Shown piece by piece: positions 1 to 57,503 of a stretch of 64,000 nt of DNA (within the stretch, counting starts at the first letter, position 1; each line of letters starts with the position of its first letter). The stretch lies in sequence record PP174317.1. One strand, 5' to 3'. Under the pieces are notes generated by a model. The model saw nothing but the letters and a program-made list of their open reading frames with translations. It made no database searches and had not been told where the DNA came from. Both the position numbers and the translations under genes were made by a program. The stretch comes from Acinetobacter phage vB_AbaSt_W16.

Positions 1-129
1 CGTCATCAAGAGCTTGTTGACGTTGATATTCTTTTTCAATGCATTTTGTATCCCAATTATAACAACCAGGCACAGCAGCATTTACTGAAGTTAATGTGCA
101 TACACTCAAAATTAAAATAAGATTTTTCA
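1..129 (-). CDS. partial CDS, N-terminus of a secreted protein (start at 129, continues beyond window)
   Basis: reverse complement reads MKNLILILSVCTLTSVNAAVPGCYNW..., a typical signal peptide; ATG at 127-129. Confidence 0.4.
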
Positions 130-423
130 TTAGATTACTCCAATCATACTTGCAATTACAGCAAGTTCACCGGCACCAATGATGAAAACTAAAAACATTA
201 AAAATATAGCAAATGCGATTGATTTTAATGTATTAGCAAGACCAATTGAAATTGCAGAAACAATAAAGGCAATAATTGTGGTAAAACCCATTGTAACAAA
301 TCCAAGTAAATTTAAAATAAGACTTGTTAAAATTATGCCTGTTGACCGCTTATAGTACACTGCCATAACAGTTGGAAAAAATGATAAAAATAACCCAACT
401 AATGCCGCTAAAATAAGACTCAT
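130..423 (-). CDS. small polytopic membrane protein (97 aa), possibly Imm-like by position downstream of gene 43
   Basis: three to four hydrophobic helices; position equivalent to imm in T4; no sequence proof. Confidence 0.45.
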   Translation of the reverse strand: MSLILAALVGLFLSFFPTVMAVYYKRSTGIILTSLILNLLGFVTMGFTTIIAFIVSAISIGLANTLKSIAFAIFLMFLVFIIGAGELAVIASMIGVI

Positions 424-746
424 AATTTTTTCTCCCGAGCATCTACATGGATGATACGGATATTATTTGCGTCAGGATATACTTCCCAACGATAGTTTTC
501 CCAATTTTCAAGAAGTACATTATCAATTTTTGCAACGTCCACATACCCTTGATACGCATCCCAACAAGTTTTATCTTTAATTGGTTCATCGGAACTAAAC
601 ACTGCGATTGAACCATCCTTGTCGATTGCAAGCCATTTTGCATTCTTTGGTATATAAATTGTATGATCAATGCCTTCAGGCGACCATTCAGTTTTTAATC
701 GAAGAATAACTTGAGGCGGAGTATATAGATTTTTAAAAATTGCCAT
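420..746 (-). CDS. hypothetical protein 108 aa
   Basis: ORF overlapping neighbours by 4 nt (translational coupling). Confidence 0.55.
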   Translation of the reverse strand: MAIFKNLYTPPQVILRLKTEWSPEGIDHTIYIPKNAKWLAIDKDGSIAVFSSDEPIKDKTCWDAYQGYVDVAKIDNVLLENWENYRWEVYPDANNIRIIHVDAREKKL

Positions 747-826
747 AATAAAATTCTCAAATTTGTATCTTGAATATAATATTACTAAAAATCCAGGGCT
801 ATGTACATAGCCCTGGATAATTTATT

Positions 827-1138
827 TCAACTTTTTTCTATGAATCGTATTTTATACTCTTCACAAATTTTATCCGCCGTATTAAAAGCTTGCGTTGGAG
901 TAGAACCATCTTTTAATCTACTTAATACGGATGTTAACCATATCGGGCCTAAATCGGGAGGTTCTCGTTTAGGCTTGTTAATAGAATCAAACTCTTTTGC
1001 TCGACGCTTTGCATCATAAACCTGAGCATCCGATACAATCATAGTAGTTCTACATTTTCGACAACGGACTTGCGGAGGATTACTCAACAAGACCGAATTG
1101 TAGTTAAAATCATGAACACATGTTTCTTGATTTGCCAT
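827..1138 (-). CDS. hypothetical Cys-containing protein 103 aa (C..CRKC)
   Basis: ORF immediately downstream of 43B; possible zinc ribbon. Confidence 0.5.
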   Translation of the reverse strand: MANQETCVHDFNYNSVLLSNPPQVRCRKCRTTMIVSDAQVYDAKRRAKEFDSINKPKREPPDLGPIWLTSVLSRLKDGSTPTQAFNTADKICEEYKIRFIEKS

Positions 1139-1140
1139 AA

Positions 1141-2325
1141 TTAGAATCCAAAAATATCTTCAAGCGATGCCCGCTTTTCAAATTTAAGCCCTGCTGCGTC
1201 ACTCATTGCCTCTAGAGGTTTTTTGAATGATTTCGCAAACATTTCTGCCGTATCAATATGACGTAAAACATCATCTCGAATTTCTTTTGGTAAATCATTA
1301 CCAGACGGCCAAGCCATAACTTTTTCACCAAATGGATTACCCTGTTTGAGTGGGATAACCATAACTTTTTCGCCTTCCATAATATCAGGAAGACCTTGGA
1401 ATTTTTTAATTGCTCGTTTATATGCAAGTACACCACGAATATGACCAGGACATTTTAATCCAGGGAATCCTTTATCGTCATATTTTGCAATATTGTTTGC
1501 TGCTGATACTTTAGCAACCACCTTATAATCCAATTTACGGAATTCTGCATCAAATTCCTTATAATATTCTTGTAAAGATGATTCACCTTCTTGTAACATA
1601 CGACGAACAGCTTCATATAATGCATCTTTAACCGCTTTTGGTGTAGATGATTTTTGTGTTTCCAGTCCCATGATTTTTAAATATGGTTCTTTAAAACGCA
1701 CGCCTTCCATGTCGTATACATTTAATGCATAACGTTTCTTCGCGGTCCAGAATGCACCAATACCGTCAGAACCTAATGGTGGGCATGCAATTGCTTCGCG
1801 GTCCATAAACATTAATTGTTCATAATTGTTTAAGTATTCGCACATTTCAGCAAAGCCTGCATTAATAACAGGTTCGATCTTTTTAGATGCAACAGCATCC
1901 AAGAAATCTACAAGTTGTTCAGTTGTTGTAAATCGGTCCAACCCAACCTTTTCAATCAATGGTGATAGTTCAAGATATAATGAATCAGTATCGCCATAAA
2001 TGACATATGCATGATTTGTAGTACCACACATCTCATTCAAATATGTGTTAATCTTTCGTTCGGTCCATTGTAATACAAGTTGACCAAAAATAGTAATAGC
2101 TTCTGCATTTCGAAGATCATAAAAACGGAACCAAATATTACCTAACGCACCATAAAGTGAGTTAATCAATAATTTACGGTTAATCTGATTCGTGTCACAT
2201 AATGTAATATAGTCTTCGCATTGGTCTTCTAACGCAATAAGTTCTTCTTGCGAAAGTGTCTGCAAATATGCAATTTCTTCTTCTGTAAAGTCCCGGCTAA
2301 AGTCAAGAACCATATCATACTCCAA
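1141..2325 (-). CDS. 43B: DNA polymerase gp43, C-terminal cistron (43B; fingers/palm/thumb, 394 aa)
   Basis: contains PolB motif B KLLINSLYGALGN and motif C YGDTDS; near-colinear with T4 gp43 residues ~500-898. Confidence 0.9.
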   Translation of the reverse strand: MEYDMVLDFSRDFTEEEIAYLQTLSQEELIALEDQCEDYITLCDTNQINRKLLINSLYGALGNIWFRFYDLRNAEAITIFGQLVLQWTERKINTYLNEMCGTTNHAYVIYGDTDSLYLELSPLIEKVGLDRFTTTEQLVDFLDAVASKKIEPVINAGFAEMCEYLNNYEQLMFMDREAIACPPLGSDGIGAFWTAKKRYALNVYDMEGVRFKEPYLKIMGLETQKSSTPKAVKDALYEAVRRMLQEGESSLQEYYKEFDAEFRKLDYKVVAKVSAANNIAKYDDKGFPGLKCPGHIRGVLAYKRAIKKFQGLPDIMEGEKVMVIPLKQGNPFGEKVMAWPSGNDLPKEIRDDVLRHIDTAEMFAKSFKKPLEAMSDAAGLKFEKRASLEDIFGF

Positions 2326-2370
2326 TATAAGGGTTTAAATTATTATACAATTAATATAAAAATAAGCGCC

Positions 2371-2610
2371 TTAATCATAATCTCGTGGGTTAATGGTATA
2401 AGTTAAACCAATGTAGCCTACAACTTCATCAGGTAAATCAATGAATAAAATCTTTGCAACTTCAATTAGTTCATTGATTTTTAGTTTAGCAATATTCATG
2501 TCATCAGAATAATCACCACTTGAATAAGTATTAGAATAATCGGCATATGTATAATCATACACGTGCTTTTCTAAACGCTTAATAAAATTATCATGTTGAG
2601 ATTTAGTCAT
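2371..2610 (-). CDS. hypothetical protein 79 aa inside gene-43 insert
   Basis: ORF between internal terminator and 43B. Confidence 0.45.
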   Translation of the reverse strand: MTKSQHDNFIKRLEKHVYDYTYADYSNTYSSGDYSDDMNIAKLKINELIEVAKILFIDLPDEVVGYIGLTYTINPRDYD

Positions 2611-2620
2611 AAGTACCTCA

Positions 2621-2650
2621 AAAATAAAAAGAAGGCTTAGAGCCTTCTTT
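2621..2650 (-). terminator. rho-independent terminator inside the gene-43 insert
   Basis: stem GAAGGCT-tag-AGCCTTC followed (minus strand) by UUUUUAUUUU. Confidence 0.7.
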
Positions 2651-2652
2651 AA

Positions 2653-3033
2653 TTAAATTGATAACATCCTATTATTCAGAACAATGCGAATTACCTTATC
2701 GACGGTTATACTGTTTCTTAGTGATGCATTGGCTGAAATTTTACTTAGGCCTTCATGTGCCAAATAAAATAAAAGTTTATTTGGGTCTGCATCATAATGA
2801 ACAACATGATCTAATTTGGGTTCCCATTTTTCTTTTTTAACAAGATGTACTGTAAAATCCGCTGAAAATGGATTTTTACGTATTTGGTCCATTAAATTAT
2901 TAATAACATCATTTAGAATTGCTTCAAATGTCTTCTCATATTGAGAGATTTGTTTACGAGCTTCGTCGCATATAAATTGATCTAAAGTTGTCATTAAATA
3001 TTCCATATAAAAAGTGGCCAGTAATTTGACCAC
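2653..3033 (-). CDS. hypothetical protein 126 aa inside gene-43 insert
   Basis: ORF followed by strong rho-independent terminator. Confidence 0.5.
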   Translation of the reverse strand: MVKLLATFYMEYLMTTLDQFICDEARKQISQYEKTFEAILNDVINNLMDQIRKNPFSADFTVHLVKKEKWEPKLDHVVHYDADPNKLLFYLAHEGLSKISANASLRNSITVDKVIRIVLNNRMLSI

Positions 3034-3041
3034 TTATATAT

Positions 3042-3242
3042 TTAGAACATTGCGTTTACAGTTTGAGACCCTGCTTCAAATGGGTTTTTAAACATTACGC
3101 AACCACATAAAAATCCGGCCAGATATAATAATGGGATACAAAACAATAATCCAAATAAAACACGCCAAGCCAGAGGTGCTTTTTCGCTAAATCCTTCAGC
3201 ATCTTCCCATGCATTTTTAATTTGAAATAAAATATCAGACAT
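3042..3242 (-). CDS. small membrane protein 66 aa inside gene-43 insert
   Basis: hydrophobic helix LFGLLFCIPLLYLAGFLCGCV. Confidence 0.4.
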   Translation of the reverse strand: MSDILFQIKNAWEDAEGFSEKAPLAWRVLFGLLFCIPLLYLAGFLCGCVMFKNPFEAGSQTVNAMF

Positions 3243-3592
3243 TATATTACTCCTACCAAATAATTTAATATATGTAGTGTCGGTGTAATTCGTAAATCAG
3301 ATTGATATGATTGCATTGCCATAGTATGAACATGTTCAACTGTTGAATTATGTGTACAACGAGCGTTTAATGTTGTTTCAATATTTTTACGAACTTGATC
3401 CACAGTATTAAAATATGTTTTCGGCCTTGGCAAATTTAAGGCTTTTAAAATTGCGGGTTGCCAATTAACAGAGAAGCCTTGTGGCTTCTCTTGAATAATA
3501 AACAAATGTGTTTCTAAACGCTCAAACACTTCATTTGTTTGACTAGATTTCATAACGTTTAACCACCATATCGTAACGAGGATGTTTTGCAC
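3242..3592 (-). CDS. hypothetical protein 116 aa inside gene-43 insert
   Basis: ORF; N-terminus overlaps upstream ORF, true start may be internal Met. Confidence 0.4.
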   Translation of the reverse strand: MQNILVTIWWLNVMKSSQTNEVFERLETHLFIIQEKPQGFSVNWQPAILKALNLPRPKTYFNTVDQVRKNIETTLNARCTHNSTVEHVHTMAMQSYQSDLRITPTLHILNYLVGVI

Positions 3593-3866
3593 GTAATTCT
3601 GATTGAATTTTTACAAAACCATCAAAAATTTCATGTAACAAAGGTACTGTAATTGCTTTATGACTTAATGTTTTAGCCAATTCTAAAATTGCATCGCGAA
3701 TATCTTTACGAACATCATCAGCAAACTGGTTTATAAACATATCATCACAATCTAATAATGCATTACCGTCACGAATTATGCATAAGTATGGATATACATT
3801 AACACTTTGAACTTGTGAGTTATGTGAAATTACGCCAGCATCAAATTCAATAAAATTGGTTTTCAT
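3543..3866 (-). CDS. hypothetical protein 107 aa inside gene-43 insert
   Basis: ORF. Confidence 0.45.
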   Translation of the reverse strand: MKTNFIEFDAGVISHNSQVQSVNVYPYLCIIRDGNALLDCDDMFINQFADDVRKDIRDAILELAKTLSHKAITVPLLHEIFDGFVKIQSELRAKHPRYDMVVKRYEI

Positions 3867-3893
3867 AACATTTTCCTCAAATACTTTAAAAGA

Positions 3894-4166
3894 TTAAGCA
3901 ATAACTAATTTAGTTGCGATTGGCTCAAGTTCATCTGCTAAGGCCGCTAAGTTTAATGTTGTTACATCAACACCAATGTAATTATGGATAATACGTTCCA
4001 TTTGTTGGATTTCATTTAAATTTGATTCGCGAATATATTCGGGTACAACAAATTTAACTGAATCATTTGCAAATAAAACAGATACTTCACCCAAAGTAAT
4101 TTTACCGTCAAGCGAACGTGTTGCGCGAGCATCTACAACTGCTTTACATTGATTTAATACTTTCAT
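3894..4166 (-). CDS. hypothetical protein 90 aa inside gene-43 insert
   Basis: ORF with AAGG Shine-Dalgarno sequence; first ORF after 43A. Confidence 0.45.
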   Translation of the reverse strand: MKVLNQCKAVVDARATRSLDGKITLGEVSVLFANDSVKFVVPEYIRESNLNEIQQMERIIHNYIGVDVTTLNLAALADELEPIATKLVIA

Positions 4167-4227
4167 TTCATTTACCTTGTTTGCTTGATGTGATCATTAT
4201 ATCACATCCTTGTGATAATGGAACCCT

Positions 4228-5736
4228 TTATTTAATTAATTTTTTAATTATTTCTGCATTACGTTCTGCAGTCTTCATTTTCTTCTTCCATTCTTTACGT
4301 TGGAAGAAAACTTTAGCTGTTTCACGTGGAATCACACCTTGTTTGGTCTTATCATACATCATGCCACTCGGTGAACATGAATAACGATCAGAAGGTTTCT
4401 TAGCAATTCGTCCAATATAGTCTGCTAAAGGTGCCGGTGCAAATTGGCCAGCAATTGTTTCTGGGCTAATATTAACTTGTCGAATAATCGATGGGTAAAG
4501 TGATGTTACGTCAAATGATACAACATACTTATATGCCCCAGGTTTTGGTTCTTTAACAAATGCACCTGCATATGGTTGTCGTACATTAGATTTGGTTTCC
4601 GGTAACACCAAATGATCAGGTTTCAATGAGTTAAAAATAATCGCATCCCAGGTTTTTACTGGACTCATTACACCTTGAATATTCATTTTAGCATAATAAC
4701 CCATCGAAATAGATAGATTAATAAATCCACGCTTCATATCAATAGCTTGTACACAGTATACGTCTACAATGTTATATGAAATATAACGCTGATGATTTGT
4801 ACTTCGTAATTTATTAATTGGACCATCATATGCCAATTTATTGATTTTTGCTTCATACTCTGCAATATAATCAAGTTTATATGTAGGCTGAGTAGTAAAT
4901 GAGAACTTTTTATAAAGATCAATATAATCTAAAATTTGAACACCTGAAATACTAAAAATTTCAGCGTCACCATACATATTTGTAATTGTCTTAGATGTAA
5001 TACGACCAAATGGACTCATTTTTTTCATATAAGAAACGCCGAGTACGTTCTTAATACGATTTAATAAGTACGGGATATCAAACCCTTCAATATTCCATCC
5101 TGTGAAAATAACGGGAGGTTTTTCTTCCCAAAGACGAACATATTCTTGCAGCATTTCATGTTCAGTATCAAATGCGAAGTATACAACTTTATCTAAAATA
5201 TGTTGTGGGACTTCATCACCACCTTCAGACTCAGGCAAAGCTGCTTTAATACGATCCCAGGGTTCAACACGCCCATCGCTAGAATTTAATAAATCAAATA
5301 CATAATACTTATCATCTATCGAATCATAATGCGTAATAGCATCAATTTCGTATTTTGCAAATGCAGGCTCAGGGAACTCAGGTGCTGTTACCTCAATGTC
5401 ACAATTGGCAACACGAATCGCTTTGCGGTCATATGTGATATCTGAATTATATGTGTCAGAAATATAGGCTAGTTTAAAATCGTCCATGCCTAAAATTTCA
5501 ACAATACCACGAGTCTTTTGGGCCCATTCTTTTGCTGCACGAATAGATGTAAATTCTTTTGGTAAACACGGTTTACCATAAATGTCTTTATGCTTAGTTA
5601 CAGTACCTTCTTTTGCATGAATAAACAATGTTGGTTCATATGCAACTTCACGACGTTTTTCAATACCATCTTCAATATAACGTTCCTGAATTAAATCACC
5701 GGATTGTTCTACTACTAGATAAAAAGTATTACTCAT
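4228..5736 (-). CDS. 43A: DNA polymerase gp43, N-terminal cistron (43A; 3'-5' exonuclease + N-terminal palm, 502 aa)
   Basis: exo motifs FDIE / YNIVDV-like, DxxSLYPS motif A (FDVTSLYPSII); ends in loop before motif B; GAGGA Shine-Dalgarno sequence. Confidence 0.9.
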   Translation of the reverse strand: MSNTFYLVVEQSGDLIQERYIEDGIEKRREVAYEPTLFIHAKEGTVTKHKDIYGKPCLPKEFTSIRAAKEWAQKTRGIVEILGMDDFKLAYISDTYNSDITYDRKAIRVANCDIEVTAPEFPEPAFAKYEIDAITHYDSIDDKYYVFDLLNSSDGRVEPWDRIKAALPESEGGDEVPQHILDKVVYFAFDTEHEMLQEYVRLWEEKPPVIFTGWNIEGFDIPYLLNRIKNVLGVSYMKKMSPFGRITSKTITNMYGDAEIFSISGVQILDYIDLYKKFSFTTQPTYKLDYIAEYEAKINKLAYDGPINKLRSTNHQRYISYNIVDVYCVQAIDMKRGFINLSISMGYYAKMNIQGVMSPVKTWDAIIFNSLKPDHLVLPETKSNVRQPYAGAFVKEPKPGAYKYVVSFDVTSLYPSIIRQVNISPETIAGQFAPAPLADYIGRIAKKPSDRYSCSPSGMMYDKTKQGVIPRETAKVFFQRKEWKKKMKTAERNAEIIKKLIK

Positions 5737-5772
5737 ATTTTAATCCTCATCAAGATATACTAATTATAAAAT

Positions 5773-5804
5773 AAAAAAGGGGAAAGCAACTTTCCCCTTT
5801 TATT
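5773..5804 (-). terminator. bidirectional rho-independent terminator upstream of 43A
   Basis: GGGGAAAG-caa-CTTTCCCC flanked by A6 and T-run. Confidence 0.7.
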
Positions 5805-6036
5805 ACTTGTCGCCTTGGACAACAGCTGTTTTTGTCATTTCTTCTTGAGGTACAAATCCATTATCTGTTTTTACAAAACACCCGCTAATTAATGAATATT
5901 TTGTGGTACGGCCTGTAATAGATTCATAACTGTTACATTTAATATAGCCACTCACTGTATTGTATGTTAAGCCTACTGCAACAATAACACAGACGATAAT
6001 AACAGAGAATACGAGTTCAATTAAATTATTGCTCAT
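5803..6036 (-). CDS. small membrane protein 77 aa
   Basis: N-terminal TM helix; followed by bidirectional terminator. Confidence 0.45.
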   Translation of the reverse strand: MSNNLIELVFSVIIVCVIVAVGLTYNTVSGYIKCNSYESITGRTTKYSLISGCFVKTDNGFVPQEEMTKTAVVQGDK

Positions 6037-6420
6037 TTATGCACCTACAACATATTTTGATTTAAGAGACCACTCGGCTTTCTGTGCGGCTTTAATAACA
6101 CGGAAATTATTAGTAACTTCAATCTCAGGCGGCGCAAATTCAACCTCAACAAGACCCCATGTTTCAAGTGTCTTAGCAATAGAAACAGTACGTTGAATAT
6201 CTTCATCGCTAATATTAACTACTTTACCATCCAAGCGCATCATATCTTTAAAGTGAACAATATAAAATTTAGGTTCACCTGTCGCAGGGTCTTGTTTTTT
6301 CAAGATATGACATGATTGATATAAAACTTTATCACGTTGATTTGCAATACCCATACGGGTTAAGGTTTCTTTTACTTTCAAAAAGTTTTCAGATTGTACA
6401 AGTTTAATAGGGATCATCAT
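6037..6420 (-). CDS. regA: translational repressor RegA
   Basis: 127 aa; FLKVKETLTRMGIAN..KVLYQSCHIL..YIVHFK..NNFRVI near-identical blocks to T4 RegA; position between 43 and 62. Confidence 0.85.
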   Translation of the reverse strand: MMIPIKLVQSENFLKVKETLTRMGIANQRDKVLYQSCHILKKQDPATGEPKFYIVHFKDMMRLDGKVVNISDEDIQRTVSIAKTLETWGLVEVEFAPPEIEVTNNFRVIKAAQKAEWSLKSKYVVGA

Positions 6421-7004
6421 AGTAGTTTCAACTCTTTAAGTTCTTTGGGATTTTTGGTAATTGACTTTAAAAAGTCTTCTGTTGCTAATGCTTTAGCATC
6501 ACGTAATACTTCAGTTAACTTACCTTTATGCTCAAGTAATTTTCGATAGTCATAAGCCGTATTTGCATTAACTTTATAATATTTCATTAAAAGCTGAATA
6601 ATATATTTGTCTTTAAAACTCTCATCCAGCTTTACAGTTTTGCTAAATCTACGACCTTTTGGAATCAACATTGTCAAATAATTATGATGATGTTGATCAC
6701 TAAGACCTTGTAATACCATATTGGACATATACACAGCAGGCATACATTCAATGTGTCGACTTAACATGTTGTCAATCATAAACTTTGAATAGTCCATATG
6801 CATTACAGACATTTCACGTTTATTTTGATTGATATTATTTAAGATTTTAAACAAATCGGCTTCTGGCTTTTCTTTAAATTCGTCAGCAAGTTTTTTAACT
6901 GCATCCCAATCTTTATTCATCCAAGCAACTTCATGAGGATTAAGTTGAACTTCATCCTCATCAAATAAACAAATCATACTCATTTTATCACTCCAATTAT
7001 ACAC
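6417..7004 (-). CDS. 62: clamp loader small subunit gp62
   Basis: 195 aa (T4 187 aa), synteny between regA and 44, start/stop overlap. Confidence 0.7.
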   Translation of the reverse strand: MYNWSDKMSMICLFDEDEVQLNPHEVAWMNKDWDAVKKLADEFKEKPEADLFKILNNINQNKREMSVMHMDYSKFMIDNMLSRHIECMPAVYMSNMVLQGLSDQHHHNYLTMLIPKGRRFSKTVKLDESFKDKYIIQLLMKYYKVNANTAYDYRKLLEHKGKLTEVLRDAKALATEDFLKSITKNPKELKELKLL

Positions 7005-8038: not shown

Positions 8039-8728
8039 TTAAAAGTTGTGTGATGATTCATCTTCAACTGCGATTACATAATTTGCAGCAGTACCTTCAA
8101 AACGGGCTGCAAATAAATGATCTTTTGCCCATAATTGAACTTTATAAGTATCAGACTGTAATTTTAAATTTGTTAAATTAATCACAAAATTAAAATCACA
8201 TGAACCATCATAGTCCGAAACTTCAAAAGTTGAAAGTGGTTTTTCAAGATTTGGATCAATTGTTTTGTTGAATGCATTAATAACGACCAATCCAGACTTA
8301 TTTGTAATCGCTACTGTATCAGCACCAAGACCACGTGCAATTTTCATAACCTGATTATATTCTTCGGCAGGTAACTCAAATTCAACTTCAGCTGGCGGGA
8401 ATTGAATTGGTTTTTTAGGATACACAATTGCCGATGGGTCACACGATGGCCAAATAATTTCAGAACGTTTACCTTTAATAATAATATCTGCACCTTTAAC
8501 AGACACTTCCGAATCTTCACCAGATAAAGATAAAATACTTAAAAATGCATTTAAATCATAAATAGCAACATCAAAATCAATAGTGTCTTCAGGCTGAAGA
8601 TTTACTTCACCGTATGTTGCACCATTTGCGGCACGAGTCATAATAAATGTGCCAGCTGTTAAGTTAATGCCAGTATTAATAGTTGCAAAGTTTTTAAGAG
8701 TTGCGATTAGACCTTTAGAAAATTTCAT
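8039..8728 (-). CDS. 45: sliding clamp gp45
   Basis: 229 aa (T4 228 aa), synteny. Confidence 0.85.
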   Translation of the reverse strand: MKFSKGLIATLKNFATINTGINLTAGTFIMTRAANGATYGEVNLQPEDTIDFDVAIYDLNAFLSILSLSGEDSEVSVKGADIIIKGKRSEIIWPSCDPSAIVYPKKPIQFPPAEVEFELPAEEYNQVMKIARGLGADTVAITNKSGLVVINAFNKTIDPNLEKPLSTFEVSDYDGSCDFNFVINLTNLKLQSDTYKVQLWAKDHLFAARFEGTAANYVIAVEDESSHNF

Positions 8729-8759
8729 TCATTACACCTTTCAAATCAATTAAGTTAAA

Positions 8760-9230
8760 TTATTTTACATCACGTTGCGCGAAACGCGTAATAAACATTT
8801 GGGCAGCTTGAATTAATAATTCATCTGGATTTTTACAGAATTCATCTGATAAACGTTTAAAACCGCCGACACGAATTTCTTTAGCACCAGCCGCTTCAGC
8901 TTCTTTATTTGCATTTGCTAAAAGTTCAACCCAAATTTCATTAGTCTCCTGGTCAAATGATTTATATAATTGTCGTTTTACATCACCAGGAAAATGTGCA
9001 AATTTGGCTTTTACTTCATCCGGCATTTGCAATGACCATGCTTTTCGAATACGATTATCAGCAGATTGACCTACGGCGTCATTCGTTGTATTTGCTGCGG
9101 TACGTTTAGGTTGCAAGTCATTTACCGTAATTTCTTTAAAGATCATAATAAGATTACCTTGTTTCGTTACATCTATTTTAATATAAAATTTGTGAAGCAT
9201 TTGAAGTTGTTTGGTCGTTAAAATTTTCAA
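8760..9230 (-). CDS. RpbA-like protein (position-based), true start probably internal Met near 9146
   Basis: position after gene 45 as rpbA in T4; 5' end overlaps next ORF. Confidence 0.35.
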   Translation of the reverse strand: MKILTTKQLQMLHKFYIKIDVTKQGNLIMIFKEITVNDLQPKRTAANTTNDAVGQSADNRIRKAWSLQMPDEVKAKFAHFPGDVKRQLYKSFDQETNEIWVELLANANKEAEAAGAKEIRVGGFKRLSDEFCKNPDELLIQAAQMFITRFAQRDVK

Positions 9231-9402
9231 TCAACGACCATGCTTTACTACGACCCGATTTAATTTTCATTAATTCAGATTCATCCGTAAAAGCTTGTTC
9301 AAGCATTGCGTCCGTAACTAAACGCTCTTCACCTGTGAATAAGTTAATTAGTGTCCATGTTTTAAATTCAGGATATGTTTCTAAATCACTGAATACACTC
9401 AT
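9178..9402 (-). CDS. hypothetical protein 74 aa
   Basis: ORF. Confidence 0.4.
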   Translation of the reverse strand: MSVFSDLETYPEFKTWTLINLFTGEERLVTDAMLEQAFTDESELMKIKSGRSKAWSLIENFNDQTTSNASQILY

Positions 9403-9414
9403 TATACACCTCTC

Positions 9415-9627
9415 TTACATTAAGCGAATTAAATTTAAGTCCCGAATATATTCATATGGAGATTGATCATCAGGATGACATTCTATAAAAAGTTCCCAGT
9501 GCTGACGAACTTTATGCATCCACTTATCGTAATCACCTAAATTACGATCATTAAAATCTGCAATTGCCCCATCTAGACAGTATAACAGATCATCTAAGAC
9601 TTCTTTACATTCTGGTGTTAAACTCAT
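9415..9627 (-). CDS. hypothetical protein 70 aa (45.2-like position)
   Basis: ORF abutting gp46 start. Confidence 0.45.
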   Translation of the reverse strand: MSLTPECKEVLDDLLYCLDGAIADFNDRNLGDYDKWMHKVRQHWELFIECHPDDQSPYEYIRDLNLIRLM

Positions 9628-9628
9628 T

Positions 9629-11326
9629 TTATGACTCCATTACAGTAAATCGACCAACTTTTTTCATTTGCAAATGTTGGCCATAATCTTGAGGATTGTG
9701 GTCTCGATGTGAAATAATAAAAATATTTGCATCCGGCATATTATTCAATACCGTTGTAATATTTTTTGAACCTTGTGCATCAAGGCATGAATCAAATACT
9801 TCATCCAAGAATAAACATGAAATTTTAATGCCTGAAATCTTTTCGGCAATATCTCTCCATGTAAACATTAAAGCTAAGTCAATACGCCCTTTTTCGCCCT
9901 GTGAGAATGAGGCATACGAAAAGTCTTCTCGACCTCGTGAACGTATAGTTTCACTAAACTCTGAATTTAGCGTAAATGAATAATCGGCTTCTAACAATGA
10001 AAGATAATAGTTGATTTGTTTATTAAACAAAGGTAGATATTTTTCAATAATAGAACCTTTTACGCCGCTATCTTTTAACATTTCAACTATTAAAGATCGA
10101 CGGTGTTTTTCAACCACTAAATTAGACTTAGTTTCAACAAATTGAGTATATTCACCTTTAAGACGATCAATACTATCTTTATTGCTAACAAATTCCTTTT
10201 TAGCTTCATCTAAAGCTGCATTAATTTTTTTAATACGATCAACATGCTGAATGGCCAATTGTCTATTAGTCGCAATTTTATTTTCATATTGACGAATTTC
10301 TTCTTTAGCATTTAAATATGCAACTTTACGATTATGCACTTCAGTATGAACTTTTTTAAGACGTTCAAGTTCCGCATGCAATGACTCTTTAGAGTCTTCA
10401 ATTTTACTAACTAAAGAAGCATCAGAAAGTTGTTGTAAACATGTTGGACAAGCACCACCTTTTTGATAAAGTGATAAAACTCTAACAGTTTGATTAAACT
10501 CACCCTCAATCTGCACCACGGCTCGATGTGAGTTATGACTTTCTTCTGACGGGTCTTCGCCAGCATTTACAGAAAGAATTTTATCATTTAAAGACTGATT
10601 TTCAGCTTTGATCTTTTCAATTTCTGTCATTGCATCAGATTTCATCGTCTCTAGGCGAGTTAAGTTGTCACCAGACAGCTTTTTCTGACGATCATCTGCT
10701 TCCTGAAGAGTTTTAATTTGTGTATTGATATGACCAAGTTGAAGCTCGATTTTTGACAATTCCGCATTGATTACTTTGATAGCATCTTTGTTCATCTTAT
10801 CCATATCTGCTAGAACTGATACTTCCAATAAGTCTTCAACAAGTTTACGGCGTTCTGCAGCTTTTAATCCCATAAATGGTGTATAACCGGCTGTACCTAA
10901 AACTACAACTTGTTTGTATGAGACATAATTCATGCCGATCATTTCTTCAAATTCAGTTTGGAAATCTTTGACCGATGCTGCTGCATCAAGAGGTAGACCA
11001 TCTTTTAACACTTCAAATACAGTCGGTTTTTGACCACGGCGAACAAGATACTCATGGTTATCATATTCCATAATTAATTCTACTAACATATTCTTTTTAT
11101 TAATAGAATTAATTAATTGCCCCTTTTTAACATCTCGGAAAGGTCTCCCAAATAAAGCAAAGGTAATAGCTTCAAGCATAGTCGACTTGCCGCCGCCATT
11201 ACGTCCTGTGATAAGCGTCTTATGGCAAGCATCAAGTTTAATTTCAATTGGGTCGTTTCCAACCGACATAATATTTTGATACTTGATATTTTTCAACTTA
11301 AAAATTTTCATTTCACAATATCCCAA
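9629..11326 (-). CDS. 46: recombination endonuclease subunit gp46 (SbcC/Rad50-like ATPase)
   Basis: P-loop GRNGGGKST, long coiled-coil, CPTC zinc hook, C-terminal signature/D-loop FLDEVF; 565 aa. Confidence 0.9.
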   Translation of the reverse strand: MGYCEMKIFKLKNIKYQNIMSVGNDPIEIKLDACHKTLITGRNGGGKSTMLEAITFALFGRPFRDVKKGQLINSINKKNMLVELIMEYDNHEYLVRRGQKPTVFEVLKDGLPLDAAASVKDFQTEFEEMIGMNYVSYKQVVVLGTAGYTPFMGLKAAERRKLVEDLLEVSVLADMDKMNKDAIKVINAELSKIELQLGHINTQIKTLQEADDRQKKLSGDNLTRLETMKSDAMTEIEKIKAENQSLNDKILSVNAGEDPSEESHNSHRAVVQIEGEFNQTVRVLSLYQKGGACPTCLQQLSDASLVSKIEDSKESLHAELERLKKVHTEVHNRKVAYLNAKEEIRQYENKIATNRQLAIQHVDRIKKINAALDEAKKEFVSNKDSIDRLKGEYTQFVETKSNLVVEKHRRSLIVEMLKDSGVKGSIIEKYLPLFNKQINYYLSLLEADYSFTLNSEFSETIRSRGREDFSYASFSQGEKGRIDLALMFTWRDIAEKISGIKISCLFLDEVFDSCLDAQGSKNITTVLNNMPDANIFIISHRDHNPQDYGQHLQMKKVGRFTVMES

Positions 11327-16597: not shown

Positions 16598-17758
16598 TTA
16601 TTTACTATTAGGACGTCGTAAAATAGACAAAGCTGATTCAAGTGCTTGAATATCACCCAAAAGAAGTGTTGCCCTTGAATTTGCTTCTTTTGCTTTTTCC
16701 ACATAGTCTTTATGCGATCGCATTAAAGAATCATGTTTTGATTTCATATCTTTAATACGTTCTTCAAGTTGGTCATCCAACGACTTGAGCAAGTCAAGAG
16801 GTGATCGAGCCTCAATTGTACTAGTGGCGATACGACCGGCACTAGGCTGTACTAATGGTTGAACAATATTTGGACTAATTCTATCGTATGGATTTTTAAA
16901 AATATCGATACCTGTACCTAATGGTGGAATAGTTACATTTGATACAATCATATCATTTACCTTGGATGACGATTTAAAAATAACATCTAAATAATTTTCG
17001 CCAACTGCCGTTGCAGATAAATTTGGGCACATATTTAAGAATGTTAACCAACGGCGTTGATATTCTGTTGATCGATGTTGTACAGTACGATAATCATGTG
17101 ATCGAAATGCAGAACGATTTGAATCACATGAATAAACAAAACGCAATCTTACACCGCTAAGTTGTTTTTCAATATAAATTTTCATATCATATGATGCACG
17201 AATACATCGACCCGACGAACTTTTTGAAATATAATGTGCGCCTTCTACATCACGAGAATTTGCTCGAGACCAACGTGCTTCCATTGGTACAAGTCGCGGC
17301 ATATTTTCTAAGAACAAATCATTTAAAACATCAGCTGGATTTGTATCATTAGACCACCAATGTGTATGAGCTAAACCATTTAAAATAATAGATTTTTGCT
17401 TAGCTAAAGGTGTAACATTTTTAGCAAATGCATTTAAACGAGCACGTACTACTTTATCTGCGAACCATCGAGAACGAATAATACGCTTGGCAATAACATT
17501 AACATTGTTTAAGTGAATATCGCGTTCTAAATTAATAACACTTCTAATAAGACGTTCAATTTCTGGAGCAATCGGTGCAGAAGGCTCACCAAATCGAGTT
17601 ATGGCATTAGTCAAATATACAATGTACTGGCTTTTAACAGTATGTGATAACGGAGTATAACTTTTTGCATCTCGTTTGATAGGTCCATTTAATTGAGTGA
17701 TAACATCTTTAATAATAGTTGTAAGTTTGTTCTCAAGCTCTTTACGTATGTGTAGCAT
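16598..17758 (-). CDS. hypothetical protein 386 aa
   Basis: long ORF, C-terminal coiled-coil; no motif recognised. Confidence 0.55.
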   Translation of the reverse strand: MLHIRKELENKLTTIIKDVITQLNGPIKRDAKSYTPLSHTVKSQYIVYLTNAITRFGEPSAPIAPEIERLIRSVINLERDIHLNNVNVIAKRIIRSRWFADKVVRARLNAFAKNVTPLAKQKSIILNGLAHTHWWSNDTNPADVLNDLFLENMPRLVPMEARWSRANSRDVEGAHYISKSSSGRCIRASYDMKIYIEKQLSGVRLRFVYSCDSNRSAFRSHDYRTVQHRSTEYQRRWLTFLNMCPNLSATAVGENYLDVIFKSSSKVNDMIVSNVTIPPLGTGIDIFKNPYDRISPNIVQPLVQPSAGRIATSTIEARSPLDLLKSLDDQLEERIKDMKSKHDSLMRSHKDYVEKAKEANSRATLLLGDIQALESALSILRRPNSK

Positions 17759-17920
17759 TTTTAAATCCTCAAAACAATTATTTCCGTCCTACGGACGAGG
17801 GGCGAAGCCCCTATATCTATCCCGGCCTAAAGAGACAAACCAATGGGCCAACCTTCGGTTTTATTATACACACTTTTTAATGGAAAGCGAGTTAATATCA
17901 ACTTTCCATTAACTGTTTGT

Positions 17921-18634
17921 TTATTTTTCAGTCAAATCTATAAGAATTGACGCGCCGGCATCTAATGCAACATCAATATTAGCAAAACGTGTATCATGCC
18001 ATTCATTTTTTGCAGAATTCCATACTAATAAAATATTTTTAATACGACATTGACGATATTGATAAACTGTACGTTGATGCCATGACCCTCTGGTTGGCCA
18101 CTGCAACACATATTCAACTTTATTATGATTGTCTTTAAATTTTTGCCAATCCCAATATTCTGGTTTTTTGAATAAAACAGTTTTAGATGATTTTGGTCGA
18201 CTTTCAATTGATATAATTGTATGAATACCGAATTCACCGTATGGCACATTATCTGCAATACATTCATAAATCGTATCACGAATTTCTTCTAAGATATCGT
18301 CACCGTATTCTTCATACGCTTCATCACTTTCAAGATCGATGCCATATAAAGCCAAAACCGTCCAACGTACTGTTTTATATGCTTCATCGCGATCATCATA
18401 TTCATCACGACCCCAATTGTGTAATGTATCTACTTTAGGCATTTGCAATGCAACAATAAGAGCGGCCATAAATTCTTCAAAAGTTTTATCTACAACTCCT
18501 GGTACATTAGCAAAAGAATATTCGCTGGCTTTGATAAAAACTTCAGTATCTCCAGGAGTATAATCAATAGTTGTATTGATATAATCCGCGTCGTTTGTAT
18601 CGCCTGTGATTAGATATTCATGTGTATGTTTCAT
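17921..18634 (-). CDS. hypothetical protein 237 aa, paralog of 19425..20306
   Basis: shares FAxIDVAL(D/A)A block and 16-nt identical stretch with downstream paralog. Confidence 0.55.
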   Translation of the reverse strand: MKHTHEYLITGDTNDADYINTTIDYTPGDTEVFIKASEYSFANVPGVVDKTFEEFMAALIVALQMPKVDTLHNWGRDEYDDRDEAYKTVRWTVLALYGIDLESDEAYEEYGDDILEEIRDTIYECIADNVPYGEFGIHTIISIESRPKSSKTVLFKKPEYWDWQKFKDNHNKVEYVLQWPTRGSWHQRTVYQYRQCRIKNILLVWNSAKNEWHDTRFANIDVALDAGASILIDLTEK

Positions 18635-20869: not shown

Positions 20870-20925
20870 ATTGATTTCCTCATTTGGAATTTCATGAAAT
20901 TATATCATGAAATTCCAATAATGTG

Positions 20926-28876: not shown

Positions 28877-28983
28877 TTATTCATTCATTGGTGCTATTAT
28901 ATAAGCAAAAAATTAAAAGCGTACATATATCAAATGTAAACTTTTGTAACCGAAAAATAATTCAATTATTTTTCAATAAAGGG

Positions 28984-32319: not shown

Positions 32320-32346
32320 ATTATATCATTAAATTATGAAAAGCAA
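32320..32346 (-). promoter_or_regulatory. possible MotA-dependent middle promoter (TTGCTTTT ... 13 nt ... TATAAT) for ORF 31712..32281
   Basis: minus-strand reading AGTTGCTTTTCATAATTTAATGATATAATGATCACAT. Confidence 0.35.
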
Positions 32347-33970: not shown

Positions 33971-34044
33971 TGGTCGTTCAGGACGGATTCGAACCGTCAC
34001 ACAGAGTTTTAGGGACTCCTGGTCTACCGTTAACCTACTGAACG
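33971..34044 (-). tRNA. tRNA with anticodon loop CCCUAAA (anticodon reads CUA, amber-suppressor-like; alternative reading UAA/Leu if shifted)
   Basis: perfect acceptor CGTTCAG/CTGAACG, T-arm GACGG-TTCGAAT-CCGTC, anticodon stem GGAGT/ACTCT, CCA encoded. Confidence 0.6.
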
Positions 34045-37195: not shown

Positions 37196-37870
37196 TTAAG
37201 TTATTATTAATGAACGAGCTTTCGCTCTTCCAATAAATGGATATTTTTCAATAAGAGGCTTAATCCAGTATCGATCATGCTTTGATCTAAATTCTGTAAC
37301 AATAATACGTACTTCTTCAATTGAATCAACACCAAATTGTTTTGCTAATTTAGCATTCTCCTTCTTCCATCTATTTTCAGCATTTTGTTTTTGGATATCA
37401 GAGCGTTTAAAGTGTCCATTATTTCTTGTGTGATTAATACCTTTTGTAGGTGATCCCAATCGACCTTTTACAAATCCATCTGGAACTGGCTCGCCAGGGC
37501 GAAGCTTAATATTTTTAATACCATTATTGAAATATTTCTTTCCAGTTTCACTTGCAGAAAGTCTAACAGAATGTTCTCGTTTTAACCATCCATATAGTTT
37601 ATTTGACCTCTTTACGTACTTTGTTGAAGTTGTCATCATAATTGCAGCATAAGATAGTTTGTAACACCCTGGATACATTTTAACCAATAACTGATGTGCT
37701 ACATAATGTTCTTCTGGTGTTAGTTCTACCAGATTTGTCGGTTCATCTGTCCCACCCTGACATTTTGGAATAATATGATGAACTTCTTTATAGCCTTCGA
37801 GAGCCCGGGTTTTAGCCCGAGCAATCAATTCATTGTATATTCTATGATAATTCATCGACTTTTGCCCCAT
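37196..37870 (-). CDS. HNH homing endonuclease inserted between genes 2 and 3
   Basis: [10 protein letters not shown]....N...L...EH..H HNH motif; GKKYFNNG...[12 protein letters not shown]-terminal DNA-binding motifs. Confidence 0.8.
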
Positions 37871-38700
37871 ACTTTGGTAGCACCAAAAGGTTTTCCTTTA
37901 GAAACAAAGCGTTGAAGTGGCATTAAAATAACATTAGCCCAATCGGTTGTTTTAATTTCAACAAATCGACCTTTTACATGTGAAGGCAAATATGCCTTAA
38001 TCATTTTATCTGCGCCATTAAAACCTTTTACTTTAGACCAGTCAATCTTTAATTTTGTACTATTGGTTAAAGTTGATGTACTTGAATACTGTTTAAGTAA
38101 ATCTTCTAAAAATTGTTGTCGAGCTTTTGGTGGAATATAATGTAAGTTTAAACCATGAAATAAAGTCGTTCCGGCTACTGATGATTTTGATGTACCTAGA
38201 AAAATAATTAAAGGATACTTATCCCAATATGGTAATGTTTCTTTATGCTTAGCATCATAAATGAAAGCATAAATTTTACCCGGTTGTGGCTTGACCACTT
38301 GGTGTCCGCGGACACCTTTACTTAATGTTTCTTTAAACCATTTTTCAGATTTATTGTTAATGGCCGCGCCGGCATCAGCAATTCTTGTTCGTAACGATTG
38401 TCTAAAGCTATTAATAATAACTGCTTCACGTTCTCTTTTAGTTAGTTTATTTGATGGTTTAGATTTAGCTTGCTCGGCTTCCCATGCTAACTCTATTTGA
38501 TTTTTATATCTAAGCATACTACGAGTAAATGTATTATAAGTAATACCTCGTTCTTCGGCAAACTTTTTAGCAGTTGAGCCTTTTGCTTTTGCTTTATACC
38601 AATCTACGCCAATATTAACCCAAGCTTGTTCTTGCCTAGTTATTTTAGGCTGAAACTTACTTTTTGCTGGTGCAGCTTCTTCTATTTGAAATATTGACAT
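37852..38700 (-). CDS. 2: DNA end-protector protein gp2
   Basis: 282 aa (T4 274), synteny. Confidence 0.7.
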
Positions 38701-56909: not shown

Positions 56910-57503
56910 GTGGATATCAATATTGAAAACATTTTAAAAACATGGTTGCCTGAAGATATTTGTCAGGAATATATTGATATCTTACACAGACCTATAGTAG
57001 GCAAAACAGAAAAACATCATATCTTACCTAGATCTCTTTTTCCTGAACATATTAAAAATCCTAATAATTTAATTGAATTATCAATTTATGATCATCTTGA
57101 AGCACACGAATGTTTAGCAAAAACAAATGAACATAAAATGATTTTAGCTTTTAATTTTATGTTTACAGCTAATTATAGAAGATATTCTACTTTAACTGAA
57201 GATCAAAAATTAAAAGTAAAGGTAAAAAGAACTAAAGCACGACTTGCAATGTCTGATGTTAAATCAGAACAGGGAAAACTGTAAAATCCTTTTTATGGAA
57301 AAACTCATTCTGATGAGACAAAAGCGATAATAAGCTCGCATCATAAAGGCAAAAAATTATCTGCCGATCATATTGCAATTCTTGTTGCTTGTCATAAAGG
57401 TAAACCAAAGCGCAAAGTTAAATGTCCTCATTGTGGTCAATTAATTGCAATACATGCTAAAAACCGACGACACTTTGATAATTGTGCATATAAGGAGAAT
57501 TAA
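56910..57503 (+). pseudogene. HNH homing endonuclease interrupted by in-frame TAA (57282-57284); N-terminal HNH domain + C-terminal NUMOD3 (NPFYGKTHSDETKA) and CPHC zinc finger
   Basis: same reading frame continues after stop for 72 codons with hallmark homing-endonuclease DNA-binding motifs. Confidence 0.6.

Follow-up and report, generated by a model that had tools for sequence, protein, structure and literature searches.

Breaks in the T4-type DNA polymerase gene (gene 43; product gp43) at the tip of the fingers domain occur naturally in phages 133, 44RR, 31, 25 and 65 according to PMC3061061, which cites Petrov et al. (2006, 2010) and, from the same source, puts the spacing of the two cistrons at 2 bp in Aeromonas phages to 3 kb in an Acinetobacter phage. 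For Aeromonas phage 25, PMC2988022 states that the products of the split cistrons, 43A and 43B, co-purify and show polymerase activity. The genome paper of Acinetobacter phage ZZ1 reports gene 43 as split; its authors had corrected spurious split genes by polymerase chain reaction (PCR) and sequencing, and gene 43 was still reported as split (PMC4177764). Here we describe gene 43 of Acinetobacter phage vB_AbaSt_W16, analysed in a stretch of 64,000 nucleotides (nt) from sequence record PP174317.1 (the window), and the open reading frames (ORFs) that lie between its two halves. The region is identical (100%) to that of Acinetobacter phage Henu6 and 99.4% identical to that of ZZ1. GenBank labels both halves as 'split DNA polymerase' in Henu6 and ZZ1 (gp43A and gp43B in ZZ1) and annotates five or six hypothetical proteins between them.

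The finger-tip split of this gene 43 is thus a published and annotated trait of T4-like Acinetobacter phages, and by itself it adds nothing new on the phage. The original prediction for this locus, made from the letters of the window, was right that split gene 43 had already been described in T4-related phages (PMC3061061 and PMC4177764 agree), but the novelty that it attached to the locus is not supported, given the annotation of Henu6 and ZZ1 and the statement of the split in PMC4177764. What is new here is the comparative anatomy of the gap across lineages, the presence of one small protein family, F1, at every Acinetobacter-type or related locus compared, the turnover of mobile elements, and the layout of the spacers. 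The reading that we favour, with a probability of about 80%, is that an ancient fission at the finger tip gave a two-subunit polymerase and that accessory early genes have since made the gap a plastic island.

Both halves of the enzyme could be placed on T4 gp43 by alignment to solved structures. Residues 4-501 of 43A match T4 residues 3-500 (E = 4e-214), and residues 6-393 of 43B, in the numbering of a 394-amino acid (aa) ORF, match T4 residues 516-898 (E = 4e-159). The cistrons are therefore colinear with T4 gp43, and only a finger tip of ∼15 residues is shortened. Pfam assigns DNA_pol_B_exo1 and positions 18-144 of DNA_pol_B to 43A, and positions 146-236 of DNA_pol_B to 43B. The 43A product contains the N-terminal domain, the 3'-5' exonuclease (DIE motif, CDIEVT), motif A of the palm (SFDVTSLYPS) and the first helix of the fingers. 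Its C-terminus, ...NAEIIKKLIK, is followed by a TAA stop codon. In the 43B product are the other finger helix, which bears motif B (KLLINSLYGALGN), then motif C (YGDTDS) and the thumb; its C-terminal tail, ...SLEDIFGF, can be aligned with the C-terminus of T4 gp43. The catalytic motifs are intact, the exonuclease DIE and motif A in 43A and motifs B and C in 43B. The junction, ...NAEIIKKLIK / MVLDFSRDF...NRKLLINSLYGALGN, falls at T4 residues 501-515, at the finger tip and upstream of motif B, and in a multiple alignment it lines up with the junctions of phages 133, Ac42 and 44RR. This alignment, which the original prediction had proposed as a check, bears out its split point, its colinearity and its distribution of motifs. 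Its view that the polymerase is necessarily made from two polypeptides is likewise supported.

The start of 43B needed revision. The mechanical ORF begins at a TTG at 2325 (1141..2325, 394 aa), and this TTG overlaps the Shine-Dalgarno sequence. The real start is almost certainly the ATG at 2313, because a GGAG precedes it at a distance of 7 nt and because all homologues begin M-x-(L/I)-D/N-F/Y there. The gap is therefore 2314..4227, a length of 1914 nt, and it holds six ORFs, all on the minus strand, as are the cistrons. Thus, the six-ORF insert of ∼1.9 kb that had been predicted is retained, while the 394 aa given for 43B and the start of the gap at 2326 are replaced.

The splits of phages 133, 44RR, 31, 25 and 65 are like that of the window in that the two long helices of the fingers are parted at the tip, with 43A and 43B in this order on one strand, and the N-terminus of 43B (M-E/Q-L-D/E-F/L-x-R-D-F-x-E-E-x-x-Y-L) is similar. 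The enzyme would most likely be a non-covalent gp43A-gp43B heterodimer with an active site formed by both chains, and a complex of split products is reported biochemically for Aeromonas phage splits in PMC2988022. Stable and active two-polypeptide complexes of B-family DNA polymerases (PolB) are also known from PhiKZ DNAP-N/DNAP-C (bioRxiv 10.64898/2026.09.30.755723), Methanothermobacter PolB and an engineered Pfu polymerase (PMC3061061), whereas the complex of the window is presumed. The engineered Pfu is broken in the fingers near the tip, like the window (PMC3061061). In PhiKZ and Methanothermobacter, unlike in the window, the split lies in the palm and the genes are far apart, and PhiKZ has a third subunit. 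None of the three systems has accessory genes nested between adjacent halves, as the window does.

Gene 43 regions were compared among ZZ1, PhT2, AbTZA1, AM101, Acj61, Acj9, AB1I1M-1, 133, Ac42, Aeromonas phage 44RR and T4, and also at seven metagenomic loci (L013-L019); gap lengths were computed from annotated coordinates (Table 1). The junction has the same position in eight T4-like lineages of Acinetobacter phages and at six related loci from metagenomes, with gaps of 0.6-4 kb that hold 2-10 ORFs. In the Acinetobacter phages 43A ends ...KK-L/H-x-K (...RRKK in 133) and 43B begins M-x-L/I-D/N-F/Y. The identities of gp43A and gp43B to those of Henu6 fall together from 80 and 80% to 61 and 60%, with 79 and 79% in PhT2, 72 and 70% in Acj61, and 61 and 60% in 133, and this in-step divergence is, at the sequence level, as expected for two parts of one enzyme. 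Acinetobacter gp43A shares more identity with T4, which is unsplit (64%), than with the split 44RR (51%). In the favoured reading, the fingers domain would long ago have been broken at its tip to leave two cistrons, both intact, that diverged at the same rate.

The contents of the gap differ widely from lineage to lineage. When the gap proteins were compared all against all by BLASTP, 12 families proved to be shared and many proteins were singletons, and only two families, F1 (ORF1 in the window) and F2 (ORF3), were broadly shared. In all eight isolate lineages, and likewise in L013-L016 and L019, the gene that comes next after 43A is F1; it is present at 17 of the 17 Acinetobacter-type or related loci that were fetched, all with a split gene 43. 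F2 occurs in the gap of each of the eight isolate lineages and of L013-L016, and is missing from L017, L018 and L019. For ORF2, ORF5 and ORF6 there are only two or three relatives each; the family of ORF5 was found only in PhT2, AB1I1M-1 and a few metagenomic sequences besides the window. L017 and L018 (Logan SRR31860688 and SRR23971480) represent an uncultured T4-like lineage with a finger-split gene 43 and a gp43A at most 59% identical to that of the isolates. Here regA and 43A are separated by a distant relative of F1 (L017:6001-6237), and the gap consists of two unrelated small ORFs. Identity to the Henu6 proteins is 30-47% for F1 and 22-42% for F2, against 60-80% for gp43; between genera, at 30-47% against 70-80% identity, F1 and F2 evolve ∼3-fold faster than gp43. 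We read this pattern as a turnover of gap content among relatives in which the ORF1 family would always be kept and the ORF3 family usually.

Phage 133 illustrates the pattern. Its gap of ∼2.9 kb shares F1 and F2 with the window but is without ORF2, ORF4, ORF5 and ORF6; among its eight ORFs is a macro-domain homologue of Tk.4, an element that the six ORFs of the window do not include. In 133-type genomes the start of F1 overlaps the stop of 43A (ATGA). The macro-domain protein is carried at L008:4585-5322 (phage 133) and L013:7411-8130, and a protein of ∼157 aa with a weak Pyr_excise (endonuclease V-like) match is found in the gaps of Ac42, Acj61, Acj9 and L019. The gap can therefore hold enzymes as well as ORFans.

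The six proteins of the window gave nothing significant in Pfam and nothing in NCBIfam, so that no functional family was assigned, and in PHROGs only families of unknown function were matched, by ORF1, ORF3 and ORF4. Profile searches of 5.8e9 proteins recovered 17 clusters of F1, 7 of F2 and 10 of the ORF5 family, and an exhaustive HMMER scan of 1.84e9 proteins recovered 32 F1 representatives; the families are tiny, and no member has a domain match or an informative name. F1 has the conserved motif DR-x-NK...IE...H-x-YIG. AlphaFold2 predicts for it a four-stranded sheet followed by three helices (predicted local distance difference test, pLDDT, 79.8) and for F2 three strands followed by helices (pLDDT 80.9). 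BFVD gave nothing beyond the family itself, and neither predicted fold gave a replisome-related match. The two predicted topologies are similar despite no detectable sequence relation, and Foldseek paired the F1 model weakly with a 94-aa protein of phage 133 that is maybe its F2 member (template-modelling score, TM, 0.38). F1 and F2 were also considered as paralogues, which was rejected at an hhalign probability of 0.15%.

ORF3 extends mechanically to 3242-3592, giving 116 aa from a GTG. ORF4 has one long hydrophobic stretch, VLFGLLFCIPLLYLAGFLCGCVMF, and its product is therefore probably membrane-associated. ORF6 resembles the C-terminal part of Acj61p088, a 182-aa protein of the Acj61 gap. 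This protein (L005:6021-6569) looks like a fusion, since its residues 98-169 resemble ORF6 while residues 52-75 resemble (58% over 24 aa) the ORF at 827-1138 of the window, which lies just downstream of 43B. The best match to ORF3 and ORF4 in phage DLP2 (OP946502.1) is at 17476-17990, away from its 43A (∼48.8-50.3 kb); there are two matching places, which may reflect a rearrangement or a second copy.

Between the window (equal to Henu6 here) and ZZ1, ORF4 differs by 5 synonymous and 1 non-synonymous changes and ORF5 by 4 and 1. Judged from their sequences, the six ORFs are real genes, because conservation at the amino-acid level extends across genera and because ORF4 and ORF5 together show 9 synonymous against 2 non-synonymous differences. 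The six are lineage-restricted small proteins of an early type and most likely accessory cargo.

The arrangement of signals around these genes was read at the level of consensus motifs and predicted hairpins. Upstream of 43A, a hairpin at 5775-5801 (-17.7 kcal/mol, z-score -2.6) holds TTGCTTTC in its loop, and a TATAAT lies 13 nt downstream. A strict T4 middle-promoter-like motif, defined as A/T-N-GCTT-T/C-N, 11-13 nt and TATAAT, occurs 3 times on the window's minus strand, against 0.34 expected, and 66 Acinetobacter phage records carry homologues of MotA. Other strict matches are at 32320-32346 and 28896-28922, both on the minus strand and each, like the one before 43A, shortly upstream of an ATG with a Shine-Dalgarno-like sequence. 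We suggest that 43A would be transcribed from its middle-promoter-like element, and 43B probably by read-through, to which a weak promoter belonging to 43B itself may add. The spacer before 43B has a degenerate MotA-box-like GCGCTTAT 14 nt upstream of its TATAAT, which falls outside the strict motif; phages 133 and PhT2 have at the homologous place a good MotA box, N11-12 and a -10 box. A separate promoter for 43B in this spacer is possible. CCCT-N-GGAG, which is found upstream of 43A and 43B in several lineages, was considered as a gp43 operator and rejected, as it is not enriched in the window and is absent upstream of the Henu6 43A.

Directly after the 43A stop, the gap would open with a promoter-like element in a stem-loop. 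The inverted repeat GATGTGAT/ATCACATC (4186-4209) surrounds a perfect TATAAT, with a -35-like GTTCCA 17 nt upstream. The homologous spacer in PhT2, AM101, AB1I1M-1 and Acj9 has GTTTAC and TATAAT, with an inverted repeat over the -10 box in the first three. The promoter-plus-hairpin character is plain in these three and fainter in Acj9 and Henu6. The 49-nt intercistronic sequence of 44RR also has an inverted repeat around TATAAT but, unlike the gap of the window, contains no ORF. A scan for hairpins around -10-like boxes also gave a near-perfect inverted repeat at 20884-20918 on the minus strand, ttggaatttcatgata-TAA-tttcatgaaattccaa, with 15 paired bases and one mismatch.

Downstream, ORF3 overlaps the end of ORF2 by 11 nt and the start of ORF4 by 1 nt, which suggests translational coupling, and ORF5 is flanked by two terminator-like hairpins as a cassette of its own. 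On the basis of these overlaps and hairpins, the gap is therefore divided into three cassettes, [ORF1-4], [ORF5] and [ORF6]. ORF1-ORF4 would form a tightly packed, probably translationally coupled block closed by a terminator-like hairpin, and ORF5 and ORF6 would be single-gene cassettes. This predicted layout matches the phylogenetic pattern of a conserved core and patchy single genes.

The 43A-ORF1 spacer resembles, with a promoter activity that is predicted, a PeSL (promoter-early/stem-loop) cassette, in which a stop codon is followed by sigma70-like -35 and -10 boxes, a stem-loop that lies between these boxes or covers them, a Shine-Dalgarno sequence and a start codon (Arbiol et al. 2010, PMC2839356). 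The hyperplastic PeSL regions described there are like the gap in having small ORFans on one strand, with spacers that carry, by prediction in the gap, a sigma70-like promoter and/or a stem-loop that can reach over the -10 box, and in a gene content that differs cassette by cassette between relatives. PeSLs were defined and tested in RB49 and phi1 and not in Acinetobacter phages, whereas the cassettes of the window lie inside an essential core gene, and no repeated PeSL family was demonstrated in the window. Overall, the gap would behave as an ordinary T4-type 'hyperplastic' intergenic region and not as an intron, intein or homing-endonuclease element.

Table 1. Positions of features in and around the gap of the window (top), and length and ORF content of the gene 43 gap by phage or locus (bottom)
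Feature	Position	Strand	Size	Remarks
Middle-promoter-like (MotA box) element upstream of 43A	5763..5801	-		Hairpin, box and TATAAT
43A, N-terminal polymerase subunit	4228..5736	-	502 aa	ORF listing, Pfam, T4 alignment
43A-ORF1 spacer	4186..4227	-		TATAAT inside 8-bp inverted repeat
ORF1	3894..4166	-	90 aa	Family F1, phrog_21960; ORF listing, PHROGs
ORF2	3543..3866	-	107 aa	Family F4; weakly similar homologues, only in PhT2, AM101, AB1I1M-1
ORF3	3242..3553	-	103 aa from ATG at 3553	Family F2, phrog_26620
ORF4	3042..3242	-	66 aa	Family F3, phrog_24434; in 5 of 8 lineages
Terminator-like hairpin and T-run after ORF4	3012..3035	-		-13.8 kcal/mol, z-score -4.3; 0 of 200 shuffles as stable
ORF5	2653..2994	-	113 aa from ATG at 2994	Family F5; ORF listing 2653-3033
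Terminator-like hairpin and T-run after ORF5	2628..2650	-		-12.2 kcal/mol, z-score -2.0
ORF6	2371..2610	-	79 aa	Family F6; like AB1I1M-1 ORF8
ORF6-43B spacer	2314..2370	-		Unstructured; TATAAT (...AATTGTATAAT...), 43B Shine-Dalgarno GGAG
43B, C-terminal polymerase subunit	1141..2313	-	390 aa from ATG at 2313	
Gap, Henu6			1914 nt	6 ORFs
Gap, ZZ1			1916 nt	6 ORFs
Gap, PhT2			2147 nt	6 ORFs
Gap, L019			2372 nt	5 ORFs
Gap, Acj9			2417 nt	6 ORFs
Gap, Ac42			2508 nt	7 ORFs
Gap, L016			2524 nt	7 ORFs
Gap, L013			2531 nt	7 ORFs
Gap, 133			2917 nt	8 ORFs
Gap, AM101			2999 nt	5 ORFs and MobE
Gap, AB1I1M-1			3012 nt	9 ORFs
Gap, Acj61			3987 nt	10 ORFs
Gap, L017			584 nt	2 ORFs
Gap, 44RR			49 nt	0 ORFs

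Selfish elements were found at this locus in several relatives. In AM101 an opposite-strand MobE (an HNH endonuclease) lies immediately upstream of 43B (L004:10321-11445). MobE of this type is present in only 16 Acinetobacter records, a subset of the Lazarusvirus-type phages (Konradin-v2 has it, Konradin does not), and a further homologue (55% identity) in Providencia phage PSTCR6 brings the total to 17 records. A 51%-identical MobE occupies the same site in the 133-like metagenomic locus L015 (8527-9561) and is not in its near-twin L014. In L019 (ENA ERZ15185492 NODE_49), from an uncultured Acinetobacter-type T4-like phage that is also split into 43A and 43B, a group I intron in the region 8370-9991 lies within motif B of 43B (KLLINSLYGA|) and is matched by RF00028 at 8595-8920 (57.9 bits, E = 7e-14). 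The 43B cistron of Aeromonas phage 25 likewise contains an intron, according to PMC2993671 and PMC2988022. In L014 (4614-5774) and L015 (Logan SRR30924197 and SRR23468729), 43A itself is broken inside motif A (...SFDLTSL|) by ∼1.16 kb that holds a 276-aa HNH ORF with weak flanking group I intron matches (23.4 and 21.9 bits, below the gathering score). This interruption, by which the polymerase gene is in three coding pieces, is probably an endonuclease-bearing intron. Mob-type homing endonucleases and group I introns would thus come and go at the locus, and gene 43 in this group is a recurrent target of selfish elements, of which the Henu6/ZZ1 copy is currently free.

Could such an element have made the split and left the six ORFs behind? 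A decayed free-standing homing-endonuclease gene, or an intron with cargo, would fit the Mob-type HNH endonucleases that sit beside 43B in the gaps of some Lazarusvirus phages and of the 133-like metagenomic phage, the group I introns that break 43B in L019 and probably 43A in L014 and L015, and the statement in PMC2988022 that mobE and seg insertions split, or accompany the splitting of, genes in T4-like phages. The cases compared there, mobE in Aeh1 nrdA, mobA in T4 gene 60/39 and seg43 in phage 25, are like the window in that an essential enzyme is encoded by two cistrons whose products must reassemble. The gap of the window, in contrast, has no endonuclease gene or relic of one, and its relatives carry MobE sporadically but the split universally; the phage 25 gap is reported to hold a seg-type endonuclease and a group I intron, neither of which is in the window. 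With AM101 MobE, a 344-aa ORF of L015 and the HNH ORF of L014 as queries, tblastn gave no match in the gap (2314-4227) but did give matches elsewhere in the window; with AM101 MobE, regions at ∼56916-57401 (plus strand) and ∼37538-37894 (minus strand) were similar to MobE/HNH (E = 4e-15 and 3e-06). The gap is also without signal in Pfam, in PHROG functions and in Rfam, which agrees with the original prediction that the insert has no homing-endonuclease, intein or intron signature. Moreover, the six ORFs are intact in both Henu6 and ZZ1 with mostly synonymous differences, and F1 and F2 are group-wide while the endonuclease is confined to its 17 records, which points to recent invasion of an already split gene. 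We thus regard a mobile-element origin of the six ORFs as improbable. That the split is an artefact, or is repaired by RNA splicing, protein splicing or translational bypass, seems to us scarcely credible. The original ZZ1 assembly did contain spurious split genes, but gene 43 outlasted their correction (PMC4177764), the interruption is 1.9 kb of coding DNA and not a frameshift, and over 60 Acinetobacter phage records, sequenced independently, show the same layout. In positions 1-7000 of the window Rfam found, at E ≤ 1, no intron and no other credible RNA, and the same search detects the true intron of L019. Pfam showed only polymerase domains on 43A and 43B, and the T4 alignment runs up to the C-terminus of 43A and the N-terminus of 43B, leaving 1 and 5 residues to spare, so that there is no room for the halves of a split intein. 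The assembly frameshift, splicing and protein splicing that the original prediction had named as ways in which it could fail were thus looked for, and what was found is coding DNA, a shared layout and neither intron nor intein. The window also has a transfer RNA (tRNA) with anticodon CTA (amber-suppressor type; Pyl in ARAGORN) at 33971-34044 on the minus strand, where a cluster of eight tRNAs (30.4-34.0 kb) ends. The ZZ1 paper already gives this tRNA, as 'Sup (CTA)', in its Table 2 (PMC4177764); it is irrelevant to 43A, because the stop codon of 43A is TAA.

The constancy of F1 raises another explanation, that F1, and maybe F2, is a dedicated partner of the split polymerase (an assembly chaperone, a third subunit or a regulator of stoichiometry) and is for this reason kept beside gene 43. 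The family is tiny, has been seen in no other context, and at all 17 loci accompanies a split gene; it always adjoins 43A, even in L017 and L018, its start is tied to the 43A stop in 133-type genomes, and Rhc of PhiKZ provides a precedent for an extra subunit on a split phage PolB. Synteny is conserved in T4-like genomes anyway, so adjacency is weak evidence, and in most lineages F1 has its own promoter-like element, uncoupled from 43A. The co-purification and activity reported for the phage 25 products in PMC2988022, and the ORF-free gap of 44RR, together with the lack of any F1 or F2 match in the 43 kb of 44RR that was scanned, argue against a required partner, as do the absence of F2 from three related loci, the ∼3-fold faster evolution of both families relative to gp43 and predicted folds without a replisome-related match. 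On balance, a partner role for F1 is unlikely, though we give it somewhat more credit than a mobile-element origin. Of the three ideas that the original prediction offered for the ORFs, a cargo module fits best. Assembly factors are made unlikely by the phage 25 and 44RR comparisons, by the patchy distribution of ORF2, ORF5 and ORF6 and by the loss of the ORF3 family itself in L017, L018 and L019, and a mobile-element remnant is left unsupported, as the insert has no similarity to the MobE of relatives and the changes in ORF4 and ORF5 between Henu6 and ZZ1 are mostly synonymous.

Several observations weigh against an ancient fission followed by the growth of a cargo island, as we have set it out. 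Pure cargo does not obviously predict F1 at every Acinetobacter-type locus, beside 43A even where it lies upstream, as in L017 and L018. The hairpin of the 43A-ORF1 spacer (-9.9 kcal/mol, z-score -1.2) is not exceptional and its -35 box is weak, and the early-promoter pattern (GTTTAC/TTTAC-N16-19-TATAAT) occurs once in the window, which is chance level and no enrichment. Read-through into 43B must pass the two predicted terminator-like hairpins. Finally, for this phage the association of the subunits, the starts of transcription and the expression of the six ORFs are all predicted.

With these points counted, ancient fission and a plastic gap remain the reading that we favour, and it implies that an island of accessory genes can be kept stably, and go on evolving, inside an essential core gene. 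In relatives, mob endonucleases and group I introns have repeatedly hit this same polymerase gene. F1 stands out as one small family with a strict linkage to split gene 43; if it were a partner of the polymerase after all, it would have been retained through all the turnover of the gap for functional reasons. ZZ1 and phages of the Lazarusvirus and Hadassahvirus groups serve, or have been put forward, as therapeutic agents against Acinetobacter baumannii, and since the gap genes are probably dispensable cargo, the gap is a candidate site for engineering.

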